A stretch of DNA of 64,000 bases. It comes from Escherichia coli (GTDB lineage: Bacteria; Pseudomonadota; Gammaproteobacteria; Enterobacterales; Enterobacteriaceae). Below are positions 2,509 to 50,156 of the stretch, piece by piece; position 1 is the stretch's first letter, and the number at the start of each line of letters is the position of its first letter. The notes below the pieces were generated by a model that saw only the letters and a program-made list of their open reading frames with translations, was not told the DNA's origin and did not search any database. The position numbers and the translations under genes are program-made. The DNA lies in the NCBI RefSeq assembly GCF_044324875.1, contig NZ_CP172185.1; one strand, written 5' to 3'.

Positions 2509-3465
2509 ATGCTACAAAATTGCGCACAATCAAATTGCCGCATTATTCCTAAGAAATTACGCGATATGAAACGTGAAGAGATTTGCCGCTTGCTGGCGGA
2601 TAAAGTTAATAAACTGAAAAATAAAGAAAATAGTTTGTCAGAACTGTTGCCCGATGTGCGTTTGTTGTATGGCGAGACGCCTTTCGCACGTACACCGGTG
2701 ATGTACGAGCCTGGCATCATAATTCTCTTTTCCGGACATAAAATCGGTTATATCAATGAACGCGTGTTTCGTTATGATGCCAATGAATACCTGCTGCTGA
2801 CGGTGCCGTTGCCGTTTGAGTGCGAAACCTATGCCACGTCAGAGGTGCCGCTGGCAGGGTTGCGTCTCAATGTCGATATTTTGCAGTTACAGGAACTGTT
2901 GATGGACATTGGCGAAGATGAGCATTTCCAGCCGTCGATGGCAGCCAGCGGGATTAACTCCGCCACGTTATCAGAAGAGATTTTATGCGCGGCGGAGCGG
3001 TTACTCGACGTGATGGAGCGACCACTGGATGCGCGTATTCTCGGCAAACAGATCATCCGCGAAATTCTGTACTACGTGCTGACCGGACCTTGCGGCGGCG
3101 CGTTACTGGCGCTGGTCAGTCGCCAGACTCACTTCAGCCTGATTAGCCGCGTGCTGAAACGGATTGAGAATAAATACACCGAAAACCTGAGCGTCGAGCA
3201 ACTGGCGGCAGAAGCCAACATGAGCGTATCGGCGTTCCACCATAATTTTAAGTCTGTCACCAGCACCTCGCCGTTGCAGTATTTGAAGAATTACCGTCTG
3301 CATAAGGCGCGGATGATGATCATCCACGACGGCATGAAAGCCAGTGCGGCAGCGATGCGCGTCGGTTACGAAAGCGCATCGCAATTTAGCCGTGAGTTTA
3401 AACGTTACTTTGGTGTGACGCCGGGGGAAGATGCGGCAAGAATGCGGGCGATGCAGGGGAATTAA
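2509..3465 (+). CDS. yqhC: AraC/XylS-family transcriptional activator of yqhD-dkgA
   Basis: ORF 2338..3465; protein from [24 protein letters not shown] (codon 58 of the track ORF) gives 318 aa; C-terminal AraC-type HTH region; divergent from yqhD. Confidence 0.88.
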
Positions 3466-3504
3466 ATACGTTCCCGGTACAGCAACCGGGAACGGGGAAA
3501 ATCG

Positions 3505-4164
3505 TCAGGCGTTACAGTATTTTTTTTTAATCACCACAAACAGCGTGCCTAACAAGCCAGCGGTTAACAAGGCAATTGGCAGGATCATCAGGATCGTCAT
3601 TACCTGATCTTCATGGCGTTTAACGAACGGAATCATACTTAATGCATAGCCGAAACTGGTTACCACGCTGACCCACAGCAATCCACTTAACCAGTTGAAA
3701 AACTGGAAGCGGCGGTTTGGCAGACCGGAAATTCCCGCCATGGTTGGCAGCAACGTACGGACAAATGCAAGAAAACGTCCAGCCAGCAGCGCCAGCAGAC
3801 CGTGGCGGTCAAACATGCAGGTGGCGCGCTGGTGATATTTAGCGGGAAGCTGTGCCAGCCAGCCTTTCACCGTTTTGGTATTCCCTAACCAGCGCCCCTG
3901 AATATAACTTAACCAGCAGCCCAGACTTGCTGCGGCGGTCAGAATCGCAATCGTAGGCAGAAAATCCATAACCCCCTGGGCAATCAATGCGCCAGCCAAT
4001 ATCAACAAGCTGTCGCCTGGCAAAAATGAGGCGGGCAGCAGGCCGTTTTCTAAAAACAGCGTGGCAAACATGACAAAGTAAACAACGCTAACAATATGAG
4101 GATCCGCCAGCGCGGCAAAGTCGTGTTGCCAGAGCGCAGCGATGATATCTTGAATAACAGCCAT
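3505..4164 (-). CDS. yghB: DedA-family inner membrane protein
   Basis: 219-aa [26 protein letters not shown]..., multi-pass hydrophobic; matches YghB. Confidence 0.9.
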
Positions 4165-4303
4165 GGACTTTCCTGTGGAACAGCGTTTAAGCCTTTATCT
4201 GCCTATTGTACTCCTGAATCGTCCGGGACGCCTTGATCCCGGACGCAACAATTTAAGACTTTTCACAATAAAATGTCTGCAAAATTGTCCAAAAGTGGCA
4301 ATG

Positions 4304-5491
4304 TTATACAATTCGCGCAAAACCGGCGTCCAGATCGGCAATCAGATCGTCGACATCTTCCAGACCAATATGCAGGCGAATCAAGGTCCCGCTAAAATCG
4401 ATCTCGCCTTGCGGGCGAATGGCGGCGATATGTTCTGGTTGATTTGCCAGGATCAACGATTCATAACCGCCCCACGAGTAGGCCATGCTGAATAAACTGA
4501 AGTTATCCAGATAGTTCGCCAGCTCTTCATCATTGAGTTTTTTCTTAAGCACAAAGGAAAATAGCCCGCTGCTACCTGTAAAGTCTCGTTTCCAGAATTC
4601 GTGGCCTTTACTGCCAGGCAGAGCAGGGTGGTTAACTCGCGCTACTTGCGGATGTTCTGCCAGCCATTCAGCCACTTTCAGACTGCTTTCATGATGTTGA
4701 CGCAGGCGAACACCCAAAGTGCGCAGGCCACGGCTGGTTATATAGGCGGTATCGGCATCGACCATCTGGCCCATCAGATAGGCATTCTCCCGCAGCTGCT
4801 CCCAGCAACGGGCATTGCACACGGCAGTGCCAATCATCGCATCTGAATGCCCCACCAGATATTTGGTAGCGGCCTGAATGGAAACATCGATGCCAAAATC
4901 CAGCGCCTTAAACAGCACACCGGCCGCCCAGGTGTTATCGATCATAATGATGGCATCTGGCACCACATTGCGCACGGCGGCAACAATCGCCGGAACGTCG
5001 TGGACTTCCATGGTGATGGAGCCTGGGGATTCCAGAAACACGATTTTAGTGTTTGGCTGCACATGTTTAACGATATCTGCGCCAATCAGCGGATCAAACC
5101 ACGATGTCGTTACGCCCAGTTTGCTGAGGATTTTGCTACAGAAATCCTGACTCGGTTCATAGGCAGTGTTGGTCATTAACACATGATCGCCCTGTTCGAC
5201 AAAAGCAAGAATAGAATTAGCAACCGCCGCTGCCCCGCAGGGGAACAGCACGCAGCCTGCGCCACCTTCCAGTTCACACATCGCTTGTTGTAAGGAAAAA
5301 TGGGTTAACGTTCCGCGCCGCCCATAGAACAACTCGCCATTGGCGCGATTGCGTGTCGCGTGCTTTTTGGCTTCCACACTGTCAAAGACCAGCGAAGAAG
5401 CGCGCTGAATCACGCTATTTACCGCGCCGAGAGTGTATTTTTTGCTGCGTCCTGCATTCACCAGTTGAGTATCAAGCTTTTTGTCCGCCAT
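4304..5491 (-). CDS. metC: cystathionine beta-lyase (PLP-dependent)
   Basis: ORF 4304..5626; known N-terminus [20 protein letters not shown] is codon 46 of the track ORF, giving 395 aa. Confidence 0.93.
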
Positions 5492-6909: not shown

Positions 6910-6914
6910 AAATG

Positions 6915-6949
6915 ATGCCCGGTTGCTTTTCACAACCGGGCATTTTTTT
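6915..6949. terminator. bidirectional rho-independent terminator between convergent exbD and yghA
   Basis: Inverted repeat ATGCCCGGTTG / CAACCGGGCAT with 8-nt loop, followed by TTTTTTT. Confidence 0.5.
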
Positions 6950-26381: not shown

Positions 26382-27217
26382 TGATGAGAAAATATTTCCC
26401 GCTTGAGGCGAGCGAGCGTCTATTTGTTGCGATTGAAGAAGATGATGTTGTTGATGCACAGGTCAGTTTGCCGCCGACTATCGCACTAAGTTGTACCACC
26501 GAAATCATCCATGATAATTACGCGTTATGCCTGCAATTCTGGCTCAATGGCGTCAATCGCCAGGAGTTACTGCGTTTAATATGCAAACAGGCCAAAGGCG
26601 ATGAGCTGACTGCTGATGAGCGCAAACAATTTAAATACATGCGAGCGCGCTACAAGCACCTGCGTTTTGCGCAACGGCTGTATTTAAAAAAGCATCAGGC
26701 CGGATTTTTATTCGGCAAAACGACCGTTTTTTTGGGGCGTTTTCAGGACGGCTTTCGTAACGGTAAGAAAAATATTGTGTCGTATTACGGCAACCTGTTA
26801 CGGGTTTATTTAAGCTCTCCGGTCTGGTCGTTGGTGAACTATTCATTACGCCATAGCCAGTTAGAAAGCGTAAGCGGTTTTATTGCCTATCGGCAAAAGC
26901 AAATGCATACCCTGAAAGAGATAATTGCCAAACCGCGACTAACTGGCAGGGAATTTCATGATGTGCGAAAAATCATCAGCCAGCAGGTTTCTTATTACGA
27001 CACCTTAAGATCGCTTGATCCTGAAAATAAAGAGGCGTTACTGATTTCCCGTTTTCTCGCCGCCATTAATGGTCTGATGGGGGATAAGCACGACGACATG
27101 GTGGCGGATGATATGGAAAACCGCCAGTCGTATGATGCACCGGTGGCGCTGGATAGCGATATTCGCCAGCGTTTAGAACTGCTGATTTCGCGTTTCCCAC
27201 TCTATCCGGAGCAATAA
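26381..27217 (+). CDS. hypothetical soluble protein, 278 aa, basic and predicted helical
   Basis: ATG overlaps yghQ stop (ATGA) with GGAGAGAAA Shine-Dalgarno; no family recognised. Confidence 0.6.
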   Translation: MMRKYFPLEASERLFVAIEEDDVVDAQVSLPPTIALSCTTEIIHDNYALCLQFWLNGVNRQELLRLICKQAKGDELTADERKQFKYMRARYKHLRFAQRLYLKKHQAGFLFGKTTVFLGRFQDGFRNGKKNIVSYYGNLLRVYLSSPVWSLVNYSLRHSQLESVSGFIAYRQKQMHTLKEIIAKPRLTGREFHDVRKIISQQVSYYDTLRSLDPENKEALLISRFLAAINGLMGDKHDDMVADDMENRQSYDAPVALDSDIRQRLELLISRFPLYPEQ

Positions 27218-27777
27218 TGCCATCTCGTTGGATTTTCGCTCTGATCATCGCACTCTTAGCGCCAGGCGCGGTGGCACACAATTTCGTCACTGGCAAAACG
27301 GTTACCCCTGTTTATATCCAGGAAGGCGGTGAGTTGCTTCTGAAAAGCGACGACGAAATTCACTACCAAAAGTGGAACAGCACACAGCTGGCGGGAAAAG
27401 TTCGCATTATTCAGTATATCGCCGGGCGTAAGTCGGCGAAGAAAAAGAACTCACTGTTAATTAAAGCGGTTGAAGCGGCAAACTTTCCGCAGGATCGTTT
27501 TCAGCCCACCACCATTGTGAACACCGATGATGCCATTTTTGGTACTGGCTATTTTGTCGTTGGCAAAATCGAAAAAAATAAACGCCGCTATCCGTGGGCG
27601 CAATTCGTTATTGACGGCAATGGACAGGGACGCGTTGCCTGGCGGTTGCCGGAGCAGAGTTCAACCATTCTGGTGCTGAATAAAGACGGGCAAATTCAGT
27701 GGGCAAAGGACGGCAGCCTGACGCCGGAAGAGGTAGATCATGTCATTGCGCTGGCGCAGAAACTGATCAATGAATAA
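27217..27777 (+). CDS. secreted/periplasmic protein, YtfJ-like, 186 aa
   Basis: N-terminal signal peptide MPSRWIFALIIALLAPGAVA; start overlaps previous stop (TAATG); resemblance to YtfJ is from memory. Confidence 0.55.
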   Translation: MPSRWIFALIIALLAPGAVAHNFVTGKTVTPVYIQEGGELLLKSDDEIHYQKWNSTQLAGKVRIIQYIAGRKSAKKKNSLLIKAVEAANFPQDRFQPTTIVNTDDAIFGTGYFVVGKIEKNKRRYPWAQFVIDGNGQGRVAWRLPEQSSTILVLNKDGQIQWAKDGSLTPEEVDHVIALAQKLINE

Positions 27778-43110: not shown

Positions 43111-43425
43111 TATGATAGTAACTGCGGTAGTACATTTATCCCGGAAATAACCGGAGCGATTATCAGGGTTTAACAATATTAAATACCCGTAGCGCATTAC
43201 TAGCGGGCCTAAAACAACAATATGGACATCTTAACGATATTCTGCGCCTGCGTGTGCGGAACAGAAACACTTACCCGATATACTTGTTATGCCAGAGGTA
43301 GCAATTGCGTTAGCAGCGTACTGTTGCTGTAAAGTATAACGCCTATATTTTACAGTTCAGTCCTCTTTTGCTTATTACAACCTTAAGTATATCAAGCATA
43401 TAAAGATAATAAGAGACTGAACAAT

Positions 43426-45108
43426 ATGGTTACCTGGACCCAAATGTATATGCCGATGGGAGGACTGGGGCTATCCGCTCTGGTCGCCCTGATCCCGATA
43501 ATATTCTTCTTCGTTGCACTCGCGGTATTACGTCTGAAAGGACATGTCGCCGGAGCAATAACCCTTATATTATCTATCCTGATTGCAATATTCGCCTTTA
43601 AAATGCCGATTGATATGGCATTTGCTGCTGCGGGCTATGGCTTTATTTATGGATTATGGCCTATTGCGTGGATTATTGTTGCGGCGGTGTTCCTCTATAA
43701 ATTAACCGTTGCCAGCGGTCAGTTCGATATTATCCGCAGCTCGGTTATCTCCATCACTGACGATCAGCGTTTGCAGGTGTTACTGATTGGTTTCTCCTTT
43801 GGCGCGCTGCTGGAAGGGGCGGCTGGCTTTGGTGCGCCGGTGGCGATTACCGGTGCGCTGCTGGTGGGCCTGGGCTTCAAACCGTTATACGCGGCGGGGC
43901 TGTGTCTGATTGCCAATACTGCGCCGGTGGCGTTTGGTGCGTTGGGCGTGCCGATTCTGGTCGCCGGTCAGGTAACGGGAATCGATCCGTTCCACATTGG
44001 CGCAATGGCGGGACGTCAGTTACCGTTCCTGTCGGTTCTTGTGCCGTTCTGGCTGGTAGCAATGATGGACGGCTGGAAAGGGGTGAAAGAGACGTGGCCA
44101 GCGGCGCTGGTTGCTGGGGGAAGCTTCGCTGTCACGCAGTTCTTTACCTCTAACTATATTGGTCCGGAACTGCCGGATATTACTTCGGCGCTGGTGAGTA
44201 TCGTCTCACTCGCTTTATTCCTTAAAGTCTGGCGGCCGAAAAATACCGAAACGGCAATCAGCATGGGACAATCCGCAGGTGCGATGGTGGTGAATAAACC
44301 ATCTTCTGGCGGTCCCGTGCCTTCAGAATATAGTCTGGGGCAAATCATTCGTGCGTGGTCACCGTTTTTAATCTTAACGGTGCTGGTCACCATCTGGACG
44401 ATGAAGCCATTTAAAGCGTTATTTGCTCCGGGCGGCGCGTTTTATTCGCTGGTGATTAATTTCCAGATCCCTCATTTGCATCAACAAGTGTTGAAAGCGG
44501 CACCCATTGTCGCCCAGCCAACGCCAATGGATGCGGTATTTAAATTCGACCCTCTCTCTGCTGGCGGCACCGCTATTTTTATTGCAGCGATTATCTCTAT
44601 CTTCATCCTCGGCGTGGGGATCAAGAAAGGTATTGGCGTCTTTGCCGAAACGCTAATTAGCCTGAAGTGGCCGATACTGTCGATTGGCATGGTGCTGGCG
44701 TTCGCCTTCGTCACCAACTATTCCGGTATGTCCACCACGCTGGCGCTGGTACTGGCAGGTACAGGCGTGATGTTCCCGTTCTTTTCGCCATTCCTCGGCT
44801 GGCTGGGGGTATTCCTTACCGGCTCGGACACTTCCTCTAACGCCCTGTTTGGTTCACTGCAATCGACCACGGCGCAGCAAATCAACGTCTCCGACACCCT
44901 GCTGGTGGCAGCAAATACCAGCGGCGGCGTAACTGGCAAGATGATCTCCCCGCAATCTATCGCCGTGGCCTGCGCCGCGACGGGCATGGTGGGCCGAGAA
45001 TCTGAACTGTTCCGCTACACCGTGAAGCACAGTCTGATTTTTGCCAGCGTTATCGGCATTATCACGCTGTTGCAGGCGTATGTGTTTACCGGGATGTTAG
45101 TTTCGTAA
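43426..45108 (+). CDS. glcA: glycolate/lactate permease (LctP family)
   Basis: 560-aa polytopic [25 protein letters not shown]... Confidence 0.9.
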
Positions 45109-45117
45109 GTCAATAAT

Positions 45118-45144
45118 GCCGGATGATCGTTAATATCATCCGGC
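45118..45144. terminator. hairpin after glcA (end of glc operon)
   Basis: GCCGGATGAT cgttaat ATCATCCGGC, perfect 10-bp stem. Confidence 0.45.
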
Positions 45145-45593
45145 TACATTTACATTATTCTGTCTTATTAATTGAAAATTATTTCCCTCTTTATTATCCA
45201 TGCAGCAATAATGTTTTGCGTTCAGATAACCTGCTAAATAATTAAGAACGTGAGAATATCTATTTTTTTTATCACGCAAAACAAGTTTGTACTAATTATG
45301 TTCGCTTGATGAGCAAACACCGTGCTATCTGTTGCTTTTGCAATCGCAATCGTTAAAACTATCAACAACTTGGGATAGTTACATTGTGAATAATTGTTAC
45401 TTTTTTGTTTGTTGAATCTTTTTATAAATACCCCGTCTGACATCGAATAGGGGATATTCTTATAAATTTCACCTGTTTCGTTATCAATAATGCAGTTTTT
45501 TAAGAATGGAGGAAGTTATTAGAGAAGATAAAGCATAAAACTATTTCTCCCAGTTACGAATTTTTTAACATTGTTTTGTCACTTGCGTTATTA

Positions 45594-48500
45594 ATGAATA
45601 AGAAATTTAAATATAAGAAATCGCTTTTAGCGGCTATTTTGAGCGCAACCCTGTTAGCCGGTTGTGATGGCGGTGGTTCCGGATCTTCCTCCGATACGCC
45701 GCCTGTAGATTCTGGAACAGGGTCTTTGCCGGAAGTGAAACCTGATCCAACACCAAACCCGGAGCCGACGCCTGAGCCAACGCCGGACCCAGAACCTACG
45801 CCGGAACCGATACCTGATCCTGAGCCAACACCAGAACCGGAGCCAGAACCTGTTCCTACGAAAACGGGTTATCTGACCCTGGGCGGAAGCCAGCGGGTAA
45901 CTGGTGCTACCTGTAATGGTGAATCCAGCGATGGCTTTACATTTACACCTGGTGAGGACGTTACTTGCGTGGCGGGTAACACGACAATTGCCACCTTCAA
46001 CACTCAGTCAGAAGCTGCGCGTAGCCTGCGTGCGGTTGAAAAAGTGTCGTTTAGTCTTGAGGACGCGCAAGAACTGGCGGCTTCCGACAATAAGAAAAGC
46101 AATGCGGTTTCGCTGGTAACGTCCAGTAACAGCTGTCCGGCGGATACAGAACAGGTTTGCCTGACGTTCTCCTCTGTGATCGAGAGTAAACGTTTCGACT
46201 CGCTGTATAAGCAAATCGATCTGGCACCGGAAGAGTTCAAAAAGCTGGTCAATGAAGAGGTGGAAAACAATGCCGCGACCGATAAAGCGCCATCCACTCA
46301 TACTTCACCGGTCGTGCCTGTCACCACGCCGGGAACAAAACCGGATCTGAACGCCTCCTTCGTGTCGGCTAACGCGGAACAGTTTTATCAGTATCAACCT
46401 ACGGAAATCATTCTCTCCGAAGGCCGACTGGTAGATAGCCAGGGATATGGTGTTGCTGGCGTCAACTACTACACCAATTCAGGCCGTGGCGTGACAGGGG
46501 AAAATGGTGAATTTTCCTTTAGCTGGGGCGAAACCATCTCCTTTGGTATCGATACCTTTGAACTGGGTTCAGTGCGCGGCAATAAGTCGACCATTGCGCT
46601 GACTGAACTGGGTGATGAAGTTCGCGGGGCGAATATTGATCAGCTTATTCATCGCTATTCGACGACCGGGCAAAATAATACCCGTGTTGTTCCGGACGAT
46701 GTACGCAAGGTCTTTGCCGAATATCCCAACGTGATCAACGAGATTATCAATCTCTCGTTATCCAACGGTGCGACGCTGGATGAAGGTGAGCAAGTTGTTA
46801 ATCTGCCAAACGAATTTATTGAGCAGTTTAAGACGGGTCAAGCCAAAGAGATCGATACCGCGATTTGTGCGAAAACCGACGGTTGTAACGAGGCTCGCTG
46901 GTTCTCGCTGACGACGCGCAATGTTAATGACGGCCAGATTCAGGGCGTTATTAACAAGCTGTGGGGTGTGGATACAAGTTACAAATCTGTCAGCAAGTTC
47001 CATGTATTCCATGACTCTACCAACTTCTATGGCAGCACCGGTAATGCGCGCGGTCAGGCGGTGGTGAATATCTCCAACGCGGCATTCCCGATTCTGATGG
47101 CGCGTAATGATAAAAACTACTGGCTGGCCTTCGGCGAAAAACGCGCCTGGGATAAAAATGAGCTGGCGTACATTACGGAAGCGCCTTCCATTGTGCGCCC
47201 GGAAAACGTGACTCGCGAAACTGCCACCTTCAACCTGCCGTTTATCTCGCTGGGGCAAGTCGGCAAAGGTAAGCTGATGGTTATCGGTAACCCGCACTAC
47301 AACAGCATTCTGCGCTGTCCGAACGGTTACAGCTGGGAAGGCGGTGTTGATAAAAACGGTCAGTGTACGCGTAACAGTGATTCTAATGATATGAAGCACT
47401 TTATGCAGAACGTGTTGCGCTATCTGTCCAACGATAAATGGACGCCGGACGCGAAAGCCAGCATGACCGTAGGCACCAACCTGGATACTGTCTATTTCAA
47501 ACGTCATGGTCAGGTTACAGGAAACAGTGCTGAGTTCGGCTTCCATCCGGATTTTGCGGGTATCTCCGTTGAGCATTTAAGTAGCTATGGCGATCTCGAT
47601 CCGCAGAAAATGCCGCTGCTGATCCTTAACGGCTTTGAGTATGTGACTCAGGTGGGGGGCGATCCCTATGCAGTGCCTCTGCGTGCAGATACCAGCAAAC
47701 CGAAGCTGACCCAGCAGGATGTGACCGATTTGATCGCCTATATGAACAAAGGTGGCTCGGTGCTGATCATGGAAAACGTGATGAGCAATCTTAAGGAAGA
47801 GAGCGCGTCTGGCTTTGTGCGTCTGCTGGATGCCGCAGGCCTGTCAATGGCACTGAACAAGTCGGTGGTGAATAACGATCCGCAGGGTTATCCAGACCGC
47901 GTGCGCCAGCGTCGAGCGACTGGCATTTGGGTTTATGAACGTTATCCGGTTGTGGAGGGTGAGCTGCCGTACACCATTGATTCCAAAACAGGAAAAGTTA
48001 CCTGGAAATATCAGATTGATAACAAGCCTGATAAGAAACCGAAACTGGAAGTAGCCAGCTGGCAAGAAGAGGTTGATGGTAAACAGGTAACTCAATTCGC
48101 CTTTATCGATGAAGCCGACCACAAAACGACTGAATCTCTGGATGCTGCGAAGAAGAAAATTCTGGAAAAATTCAAGGGATTAGAGGAGTGTAAGTACTCG
48201 ACATATCACTACGAAATCAACTGCCTGGAATACCGTCCTGGCACGAACGTTCCGGTTACTGGTGGCATGTATGTTCCGCGCTATACGCAACTGAATCTCA
48301 GCGCCGACACTGCAAAAGCGATGGTGCAGGCGGCGGATTTAGGCACCAACATTCAGCGTCTGTATCAGCATGAGCTCTACTTCCGGACCAATGGTCGCAA
48401 AGGTGAGCGTCTGAGCAGCGTCGATCTGGAACGTCTGTACCAGAACATGTCGGTCTGGCTGTGGAATGAAATTGAATACAGCTATGACAGCAGCAAGGAA

Positions 48501-50156
48501 GACGAGCTGGGCTTTAAAACGTTCACCGAGTTCCTGAACTGCTACGCCAACGATGCCTATACTGGCGGCACGCAGTGTTCTGATGAGCTGAAAAAATCGC
48601 TGGTCGATAACAACATGATCTACGGCGAGAAGAGCGTTAATAAAGCGGGCATGATGAACCCCAGCTATCCGCTCAACTATATGGAAAAACCGCTGACGCG
48701 CCTGATGCTGGGTCGTTCCTGGTGGGATCTGAACATCAAAGTTGATGTCGAGAAGTATCCGGGAGCGGTATCGGCAGAAGGTGAGAAGGTTACTGAAACC
48801 ATCAGCCTGTACTCGAATCCGACCAAATGGTTTGCGGGTAACATGCAGTCTACTGGCCTATGGGCTCCGGCTCAGAAAGAGGTCACCATTGAGTCTTCTG
48901 CATCAGTTCCTGTGACTGTCACCGTGGCGCTGGCCGACGATCTGACCGGACGCGAGAAGCATGAAGTCGCGCTGAACCGTCCGCCAAAAGTGACGAAAAC
49001 CTATGATCTGAAAGCCAATGATAAGGTGACCTTCAAGGTGCCTTACGGTGGTCTGATTTATATCAAGGGCAACAGCCCAAAGAATGAGTCAGCCGAATTC
49101 ACCTTTACTGGTGTGGTAAAAGCGCCGTTCTATAAAGACGGCGAATGGAAAAACGCTCTGAACTCCCCTGCGCCGCTGGGCGAGCTGGAATCAGACGCTT
49201 TCGTTTATACCACGCCGAAGAAGAACCTTGAGGCCAGCAATTTCACTGGTGGTGTAGCAGAATTCGCTAAAGATCTGGATACCTTTGCCAGCTCGATGAA
49301 TGACTTCTACGGTCGTAATGATGAAGACGGTAAGCACCGGATGTTTACCTATAAAAACTTGACGGGGCACAAGCATCGTTTCACCAACGATGTGCAGATC
49401 TCCATCGGTGATGCGCACTCTGGTTATCCGGTAATGAACAGCAGCTTCTCGACGAACAGCACCACGCTGCCGACGACGCCGCTGAACGACTGGCTGATCT
49501 GGCACGAAGTTGGTCACAACGCCGCCGAAACGCCGCTGACTGTTCCTGGCGCAACTGAAGTAGCGAACAACGTGCTGGCGCTGTACATGCAGGATCGCTA
49601 TCTCGGCAAGATGAACCGTGTCGCTGACGACATTACCGTCGCGCCGGAATATCTGGAGGAGAGCAACGGTCAGGCATGGGCGCGCGGCGGTGCGGGTGAC
49701 CGTCTGCTGATGTACGCACAGCTGAAAGAGTGGGCAGAGAAAAACTTTGATATCAAGACGTGGTATCCAGATGGCAATCTGCCAGCGTTCTACAGCGAGC
49801 GTGAAGGGATGAAAGGCTGGAACCTGTTCCAGTTGATGCATCGTAAAGCACGCGGCGATGAGGTTGGCAAAACCAAGTTTGGCGAAAGAAATTACTGTGC
49901 CGAATCCAACGGTAACGCTGCCGACACGCTGATGCTGTGTGCATCCTGGGTCGCCCAGACGGATCTTTCGGAGTTCTTTAAGAAATGGAATCCAGGTGCG
50001 AATGCTTACCAGCTGCCGGGGGCGAGCGAGATGAGCTTCGAGGGCGGTGTGAGCCAGTCGGCGTACAACACGCTGGCGTCACTCAAGCTGCCGAAACCGG
50101 AACAGGGACCGGAAACCATTAACAAGGTTACCGAGCATAAGATGTCTGTCGAGTAA
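45594..50156 (+). CDS. sslE: SslE/YghJ secreted lipoprotein, M60-like zinc metalloprotease (mucinase), substrate of T2SS-beta
   Basis: About 1520 aa from MNKKFKYKKSLLAAILSATLLAGC (lipobox LLAGC); Pro/Glu/Thr-rich linker; HEVGH zinc-binding motif at about 49503..49517. Confidence 0.9.
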   Translation: MNKKFKYKKSLLAAILSATLLAGCDGGGSGSSSDTPPVDSGTGSLPEVKPDPTPNPEPTPEPTPDPEPTPEPIPDPEPTPEPEPEPVPTKTGYLTLGGSQRVTGATCNGESSDGFTFTPGEDVTCVAGNTTIATFNTQSEAARSLRAVEKVSFSLEDAQELAASDNKKSNAVSLVTSSNSCPADTEQVCLTFSSVIESKRFDSLYKQIDLAPEEFKKLVNEEVENNAATDKAPSTHTSPVVPVTTPGTKPDLNASFVSANAEQFYQYQPTEIILSEGRLVDSQGYGVAGVNYYTNSGRGVTGENGEFSFSWGETISFGIDTFELGSVRGNKSTIALTELGDEVRGANIDQLIHRYSTTGQNNTRVVPDDVRKVFAEYPNVINEIINLSLSNGATLDEGEQVVNLPNEFIEQFKTGQAKEIDTAICAKTDGCNEARWFSLTTRNVNDGQIQGVINKLWGVDTSYKSVSKFHVFHDSTNFYGSTGNARGQAVVNISNAAFPILMARNDKNYWLAFGEKRAWDKNELAYITEAPSIVRPENVTRETATFNLPFISLGQVGKGKLMVIGNPHYNSILRCPNGYSWEGGVDKNGQCTRNSDSNDMKHFMQNVLRYLSNDKWTPDAKASMTVGTNLDTVYFKRHGQVTGNSAEFGFHPDFAGISVEHLSSYGDLDPQKMPLLILNGFEYVTQVGGDPYAVPLRADTSKPKLTQQDVTDLIAYMNKGGSVLIMENVMSNLKEESASGFVRLLDAAGLSMALNKSVVNNDPQGYPDRVRQRRATGIWVYERYPVVEGELPYTIDSKTGKVTWKYQIDNKPDKKPKLEVASWQEEVDGKQVTQFAFIDEADHKTTESLDAAKKKILEKFKGLEECKYSTYHYEINCLEYRPGTNVPVTGGMYVPRYTQLNLSADTAKAMVQAADLGTNIQRLYQHELYFRTNGRKGERLSSVDLERLYQNMSVWLWNEIEYSYDSSKEDELGFKTFTEFLNCYANDAYTGGTQCSDELKKSLVDNNMIYGEKSVNKAGMMNPSYPLNYMEKPLTRLMLGRSWWDLNIKVDVEKYPGAVSAEGEKVTETISLYSNPTKWFAGNMQSTGLWAPAQKEVTIESSASVPVTVTVALADDLTGREKHEVALNRPPKVTKTYDLKANDKVTFKVPYGGLIYIKGNSPKNESAEFTFTGVVKAPFYKDGEWKNALNSPAPLGELESDAFVYTTPKKNLEASNFTGGVAEFAKDLDTFASSMNDFYGRNDEDGKHRMFTYKNLTGHKHRFTNDVQISIGDAHSGYPVMNSSFSTNSTTLPTTPLNDWLIWHEVGHNAAETPLTVPGATEVANNVLALYMQDRYLGKMNRVADDITVAPEYLEESNGQAWARGGAGDRLLMYAQLKEWAEKNFDIKTWYPDGNLPAFYSEREGMKGWNLFQLMHRKARGDEVGKTKFGERNYCAESNGNAADTLMLCASWVAQTDLSEFFKKWNPGANAYQLPGASEMSFEGGVSQSAYNTLASLKLPKPEQGPETINKVTEHKMSVE

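Follow-up and report, generated by a model that had tools for sequence, protein, structure and literature searches.

Regulation of sslE and of comparable promoters

The mucinase SslE is broadly conserved, contributes to biofilms and is a vaccine candidate; the operon that encodes it also builds the exporter of the heat-labile toxin, and the timing and strength of operon expression thus bear on colonisation and on vaccine coverage. Control of sslE is known in outline, with roles described for H-NS, Fis, TypA and temperature. Tan et al. (2016, PMC5012682) cloned the glcA–sslE interval as the sslE promoter and mapped a single transcription start by 5' RACE in UTI89, in agreement with H10407. At 22 °C, deletion of hns raised the sslE transcript 3.5-fold in UTI89 and 2.2-fold in EC958; at 37 °C, UTI89 showed a rise of just 1.7-fold and EC958 one of 7.2-fold (PMC5012682). 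As summarised in that paper, H-NS repression had been described earlier in ETEC H10407 (Yang et al. 2007, J Bacteriol 189:142), in which the region is AT-rich, is predicted to be curved (BEND-IT) and is bound by purified H-NS. Activation by Fis depends on three overlapping sites at -41 to -68, since it is lost when they are mutated, while a further site centred at -138 (F1) is dispensable, its mutation being without effect; Fis and H-NS antagonise each other at this promoter, and TypA, a ribosome-binding GTPase, promotes SslE expression (PMC5012682). The yghJ/glcA gap of K-12 is bound by H-NS in all compiled ChIP-chip data sets (PMC3661553), and the H-NS-sensitive genes for which Lang et al. 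(2007) listed several motif matches include yghJ.

The virF promoter of Shigella and EIEC, repressed by H-NS at 30 °C and activated by Fis at 37 °C, is the analogy drawn in PMC5012682: both are AT-rich promoters associated with virulence that H-NS keeps off in the cold and at which Fis counters H-NS at 37 °C. However, virF belongs to another locus and gene class and has no sequence relationship to sslE, and a bent-DNA thermosensor geometry like that of virF would be hypothetical at sslE, where AA/TT phasing does not exceed that of composition-matched shuffles. The eltAB promoter of ETEC likewise shows temperature-dependent silencing by H-NS, and its toxin is secreted by the same type II system. 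It differs in being plasmid-borne. Its silencing uses DNA downstream of the transcription start, and a downstream element at sslE is only suggested by the AT-rich leader and by a deletion analysis by Yang and colleagues, which is said to point to one. Finally, the K-12 orthologue of the gap is an H-NS-bound member of the E. coli promoter islands (Panyukov & Ozoline 2013, PMC3661553). These islands mostly adjoin horizontally acquired genes of low GC, whereas the body of the sslE operon has a GC of 0.54 and only one of the five foreign-gene predictors tabulated in PMC3661553 flags the yghJ/glcA locus.

The region described here lies in a window of 64 kb (the whole stretch of DNA that was analysed) and corresponds to the sslE promoter of ETEC H10407 and of UPEC UTI89 and EC958 in its locus, flanking genes and cloned interval. 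It is AT-rich as well, and F1, F2 and the -35 and -10 elements are all present. It differs in being a rare allele (138 of 5,426 genomes) that is 9-11% diverged overall and 13-17% diverged near the start. The gap is very probably the cis-regulatory region of sslE-pppA-gspS-gspC..M, in which a weak promoter silenced by H-NS (and, reportedly, StpA) and activated by Fis is followed by a long AT-rich leader. Its anatomy, composition, conservation and Fis-rule matches were determined on the present sequence, the H-NS, Fis, temperature and start-site results are from other strains, and we infer that the present allele is governed in the same way. Nothing in this is new in principle; the additions are the placement of the known elements at base resolution, a gap that for the most part evolves neutrally with conserved islands at the promoter and the start codon, and the finding that the window carries a rare regulatory allele.

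Features of the glcA–sslE intergenic region

The features of the region are as follows.

45109..45593, + strand: glcA–sslE gap, very probably the regulatory region of the sslE-pppA-gspS-gspC..M operon; GC 0.309
45118..45144, + strand: glcA hairpin, GCCGGATGAT-CGTTAAT-ATCATCCGGC; perfect 10-bp stem, 7-nt loop, REP-like ends
45220..45234, + strand: putative Fis site F1, GTTCAGATAACCTGC; centre at about -140 here, -138 in UTI89 numbering
45263..45270, + strand: T8 run between F1 and F2; length-polymorphic
45300..45325, + strand: Fis region F2, three overlapping 15-mers matching the Fis rule, GTTCGCTTGATGAGC, GCTTGATGAGCAAAC and GAGCAAACACCGTGC
45332..45359, + strand: putative core sigma-70 promoter; -35 TTGCTT at 45332-45337, 16-bp spacer, -10 TAAAAC at 45354-45359
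45367, + strand: putative transcription start, an A, +/- 1-2 nt; alignment column 268
45367..45593, + strand: leader (5' UTR), about 227 nt, AT-rich, counted from the putative start
45497..45593, + strand: conserved end, the last ~100 nt before the ATG and the best-conserved part of the gap
45594..50156, + strand: sslE (yghJ), lipoprotein M60 metalloprotease, the first gene of the operon

The interval is the whole glcA–sslE intergenic region (485 bp, + strand), lying between the TAA that ends glcA (45106-45108) and the sslE ATG (45594-45596), with both genes on the same strand. No annotated features are present inside it in RefSeq genomes or in K-12. Its GC is 0.309 vs 0.518 across the window, and segments of 485 bp with an equally low GC make up 0.12% of all those in the 64 kb, every one of them overlapping the glcA–sslE locus. 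The minimum among such segments (0.289) falls at 45145-45629, so the AT-rich patch extends ~36 nt into sslE. Five T runs occur in the gap: T8 (45263-45270), T6 (45401-45406), T5 (45419-45423), T6 (45496-45501) and T6 (45561-45566). The GC of the flanks is ordinary (glcA 0.534, sslE 0.517, sslE to gspM 0.54), and the 354-bp glcB–glcA gap taken for comparison has a GC of ~0.41-0.44, well above that of the glcA–sslE gap. The sslE product possesses Peptidase_M60 and DUF4092 domains and a lipoprotein signal (N-terminus MNKKFKYKKSLLAAILSATLLAGC), and in a genome with an identical gap the gene is followed by pppA, gspS-beta and gspC to gspM. A preliminary description of this DNA had pictured an AT-rich non-coding interval of 485 bp with homopolymer runs, placed upstream of sslE, a secreted protease gene, and of its secretion system. 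This picture is borne out at each point, the interval being exactly the gap and having the lowest GC in the 64 kb, with T runs of five to eight bases inside it and the M60 protease and secretion genes downstream.

The genes that would be silenced do not themselves have the low GC that marks a xenogeneic island (sslE 0.517, sslE–gspM 0.54). As the operon body has a GC of 0.54 and AT-richness is confined to the regulatory patch, silencing would be local and not that of a low-GC island.

Immediately 3' of glcA is a hairpin whose stem is invariant in all nine alleles compared. The segment 45100-45170 folds at -19.3 kcal/mol vs -8.45 +/- 2.34 for shuffled sequences (z = -4.64), with none of 200 shuffles as good. 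The stem lacks a 3' U-tract, the next bases being TACATTTACATTATTC, and for that reason the hairpin was missed by a promoter/terminator scan, which returned two weak terminator-like sites, both in coding sequence. The hairpin, terminator-like or REP-like, is probably a terminator or a 3'-end stabiliser of the glc transcript.

The glcB–glcA gap contains a full-length match to the C0719 sRNA (Rfam RF00117, 294.5 bits) at 43126-43347 on the minus strand. Identity to K-12 is 99% in that gap vs 91% in the glcA–sslE gap.

Promoter, transcription start and Fis sites

The promoter was placed by applying the F1 and F2 coordinates of Tan et al. (2016) to an alignment of nine alleles. Their forward primer 5570 (gtcaataatgccggatgatc) is identical to window positions 45109-45128, meaning that their clone begins at the first intergenic base, and reverse primer 5571 corresponds to 45379-45400 with three allelic differences; by primer identity the clone spans 45109-45400. 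The transcription start must lie upstream of 45379-45400 because the reverse cloning primer is located there. Alignment column 268 lies exactly 138 nt 3' of the F1 centre in the UTI89-like allele, in which F2 then occupies -67 to -42. On the published coordinates and the alignment, the start of the present allele would be at 45367, and the sequences TTGCTT and TAAAAC would be its -35 and -10 hexamers. Both hexamers are invariant in the nine alleles, with GC in the spacer here vs TT elsewhere. A 10-mer overlapping the -10 element, TCGTTAAAAC (45350-45359), is one base off the gadX H-NS site listed by Lang et al. (2007). A scan of the region for consensus sigma-70 sites returned none vs 2.3 expected in shuffles; the promoter is too weak for such a scan.

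Fis sites were called by an inclusion/exclusion rule (G at -7, not A at -4, R at -3, Y at +3, not T at +4, C at +7) that reportedly goes back to Shao and colleagues. Upstream of the start, this rule identifies one isolated site and three overlapping sites, which is the layout of Tan et al. (2016) at the published spacing. The isolated match, the sole one in the upstream part of the gap, corresponds to their F1. The overlapping matches form F2, which ends 6 nt before the -35 element, a placement that fits a class I-like Fis-activated promoter, and is nearly invariant in the nine alleles. An additional match to the rule is found in the leader (45445-45459). Between F1 and F2, the T run varies in length among strains (T8 here, T7 in K-12, T6 in NU14, TTATTT in E67), so that the spacing between F1 and the promoter moves by 1-2 bp.

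F1 and the T8 run are bracketed by a perfect 10-nt inverted repeat, TGTTTTGCGT (45212-45221) and ACGCAAAACA (45274-45283). Its right arm is invariant in the nine alleles, and the repeat could be due to chance in AT-rich DNA. Other repeats in the gap are short and at chance level only.

H-NS silencing and temperature

The H-NS nucleation motif (a 10-mer resembling tCGATAAATT) has no match in the gap at up to 2 mismatches, and at up to 3 mismatches its nine matches compare with 10.0 +/- 3.0 in shuffles, which is not beyond composition. For AA/TT periodicity in the range of 9.5-11.5 bp, the highest value in the gap (45211-45360) ranks at the 97.8th percentile of the window and is reached by 97 of 200 composition-matched shuffles. 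Since neither motif nor phasing rises above composition, the support for H-NS consists of the literature and the base composition, with no specific motif. Nucleoid-protein silencing and environmental control had been proposed for this interval from its composition. Both agree with published results: H-NS repression and binding at the same intergenic region in other strains (PMC5012682, PMC3661553), and, for UTI89 and EC958, strong repression of sslE by H-NS at 22 °C (PMC5012682). H-NS and temperature control of sslE is thus already established in the literature, and the proposal was right without being new. It is refined in two respects: regulation also takes in Fis activation and TypA at one mapped promoter, and silencing would be local to the regulatory patch.

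A sequence of events consistent with these data can be outlined. The hairpin at 45118-45144 would end the glc transcript, and one weak sigma-70 promoter starting at ~45367 would drive the leader of ~227 nt and then the operon. H-NS, reportedly together with StpA, would coat the AT-rich DNA upstream and downstream of the start and so keep transcription from initiating at ambient temperature. H-NS repression would relax at 37 °C to an extent that depends on the strain, and Fis bound at 45300-45325, next to the -35 element, would then activate the promoter and antagonise H-NS. TypA would add a positive effect, possibly by a translational route.

A different reading, possible though doubtful, is that the gap acts as a promoter island in place of one defined, regulated promoter: RNA polymerase would be caught in abortive cycles at many promoter-like sites that overlap, and H-NS would maintain a heterochromatin-like state. 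The yghJ/glcA gap of K-12 is one of 78 PlatProm-predicted islands (entry 3117080_374, bound by H-NS in all studies; PMC3661553), and from its K-12 coordinates this entry maps to approximately 45276-45649 of the window, assuming an offset of 1,977 bp between genome versions. Against this stand the single start found by 5' RACE in UTI89 and matched in H10407 (PMC5012682), as well as the absence of consensus sigma-70 sites where 2.3 were expected from shuffles. An island is compatible with a single regulated promoter and does not exclude it.

Divergence and distribution of the allele

Of 5,426 complete E. coli genomes, 4,291 contain sequence similar to the gap and 138 contain the central 221 nt of the present allele; O166:H15, PCN033 and MS14384 are among these 138. 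The gap is 100% identical to that of the uropathogenic strain 118UI, the rest of the window being ~98% identical to this strain, with indels, so the window belongs to a different strain with the same allele. Divergence of the gap from K-12, an O78 strain and E67 amounts to 8.7-10.7%, and to 13-14% in its middle third, while four-fold sites of glcA in the same strains are 7.4-9.5% divergent and their GlcA proteins show no or almost no differences. For the most part, then, the gap evolves at an approximately neutral rate. Conserved blocks in the nine-allele alignment comprise F2, the -35 and -10 elements and the final ~100 nt. Near the start site, in the promoter and early leader, divergence rises to 13-17%, roughly double that of neutral glcA sites. 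Relative to the alleles that have been studied, the present one carries G for T at the 3' edge of F2, GC for TT between the hexamers, and numerous differences from +3 to +130.

It is conceivable, if unlikely, that this rare divergent allele changes expression of the operon, as a cis-regulatory polymorphism that sets strain-specific levels of SslE and type II secretion and that possibly also acts on translation in connection with TypA. The 13-17% divergence, the changes in the spacer and early leader and the stronger predicted occlusion of the start codon (see below) point in this direction. If true, it would be a natural polymorphism tuning SslE and type II secretion among strains.

When 100,044 species-representative genomes were scanned with the F2 core (19 nt), one true match was obtained, in Escherichia sp. 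E1V33, whose allele is K-12-like; three more matches were by chance and no distant orthologue was found. The gap is without any match in approximately 1,100 of the 5,426 complete E. coli genomes. The sslE gene is mosaic in structure and contains blocks that are 87-89% identical to other strains. In the commensal strain HS, an IS1A copy (2248-2945 of the extracted HS locus) lies in the gap at about window position 45223, approximately at the F1 site and ~140 bp 5' of the putative start. In strain FCI29, an IS4 copy directly follows the glcA hairpin (window 45145 onward) and sslE through most of gspK is deleted (3037-4663 of the extracted FCI29 locus for insertion and deletion).

Leader and sslE start codon

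No Shine-Dalgarno sequence precedes the sslE ATG, the best anti-SD duplex in -25..-1 having an energy of +0.7 kcal/mol. As a whole, the leader is no more structured than its shuffles (z = +0.66), and a scan of 44800-45900 with the covariance models of Rfam 15 gave no matches at E <= 1. The start region (-12..+3) is nevertheless predicted to be 0.91 paired in the present allele vs 0.58 +/- 0.12 in shuffled leaders (0 of 200 as high), through long-range pairing with leader segment 45457-45495. The same folding of six glc genes gave 0.32-0.72, and in the eight other alleles the start region is 0.68-0.75 paired, within ~1.4 SD of shuffles. Between 22 and 42 °C predicted pairing of the present allele is unchanged (0.92 to 0.91), and in the consensus fold of eight alleles none of the 40 predicted pairs shows compensatory changes. 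An RNA thermometer in the sslE leader was rejected as a candidate on this flat temperature response, the weaker pairing in the eight alleles and the lack of covariation. Conservation is highest at 45497-45593, with ~9 of 97 columns variable vs ~40 of 176 in 45325-45500, and continues into sslE, the first 300 nt of which are 97.7-99% identical between strains.

These data bear on a post-transcriptional switch, either a thermometer or a TypA-dependent translation element, in which the SD-less start codon would be occluded by 45457-45495. The lack of an SD sequence, pairing above that of both shuffles and glc genes, the conserved last 100 nt and the positive effect of the ribosome-binding GTPase TypA on SslE expression all fit such a switch. 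Yet the other eight alleles pair less at the start, predicted pairing is insensitive to temperature and has no compensatory changes, the leader as a whole is unremarkable, and the published temperature effect is transcriptional and dependent on H-NS; a switch of this kind is decidedly unlikely.

Unconstrained drift and small open reading frames

That the AT-richness of the gap reflects unconstrained drift of a spacer, with no regulatory meaning past a basic promoter, is very unlikely. Overall divergence is approximately neutral, motif and phasing signals stay at the level of composition, and IS1 and IS4 insertions in or beside the gap are tolerated in some strains, all as drift would have it. 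However, drift would leave the published hns and fis phenotypes and H-NS binding unaccounted for, along with the conservation seen at F2, in both promoter hexamers and over the final 100 nt and a GC that is the lowest in 64 kb and well under that of other gaps (glcB–glcA, ~0.41-0.44). An unannotated gene for a small protein or sRNA in the gap is hardly credible: a 40-codon ORF (45123-45245, + strand) is open in nine of nine alleles, but its ATG lies inside the glcA hairpin stem with no SD sequence and its differences between alleles are mostly amino-acid changing, a 69-codon ORF (45234-45443, - strand) is broken at its 3' end in five of nine alleles, neither ORF has an NCBIfam match, Rfam gives none at E <= 1 and nothing is annotated in RefSeq or K-12, so the small ORFs of both strands were rejected.

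Other features of the window

A second strongly AT-rich gap of ~1 kb (GC ~0.32) follows the end of gspM/yghD at 62051-63190. At its end is a JUMPstart element (Rfam RF01707, 53.6 bits; 63152-63190), and the gene after this element encodes an ABC-transporter permease in 118UI, identity to 118UI being 90-95% there; the gap looks like a capsule-type regulatory region. A match to the ES173 sRNA family (Rfam RF02753, 99 bits) is located at 1143-1206 on the minus strand. Between yghA and exbD, strain 118UI carries ~975 bp of extra sequence containing an IS200C copy (26645-27620 of the extracted 118UI locus), which is absent from the window (6910-6942).
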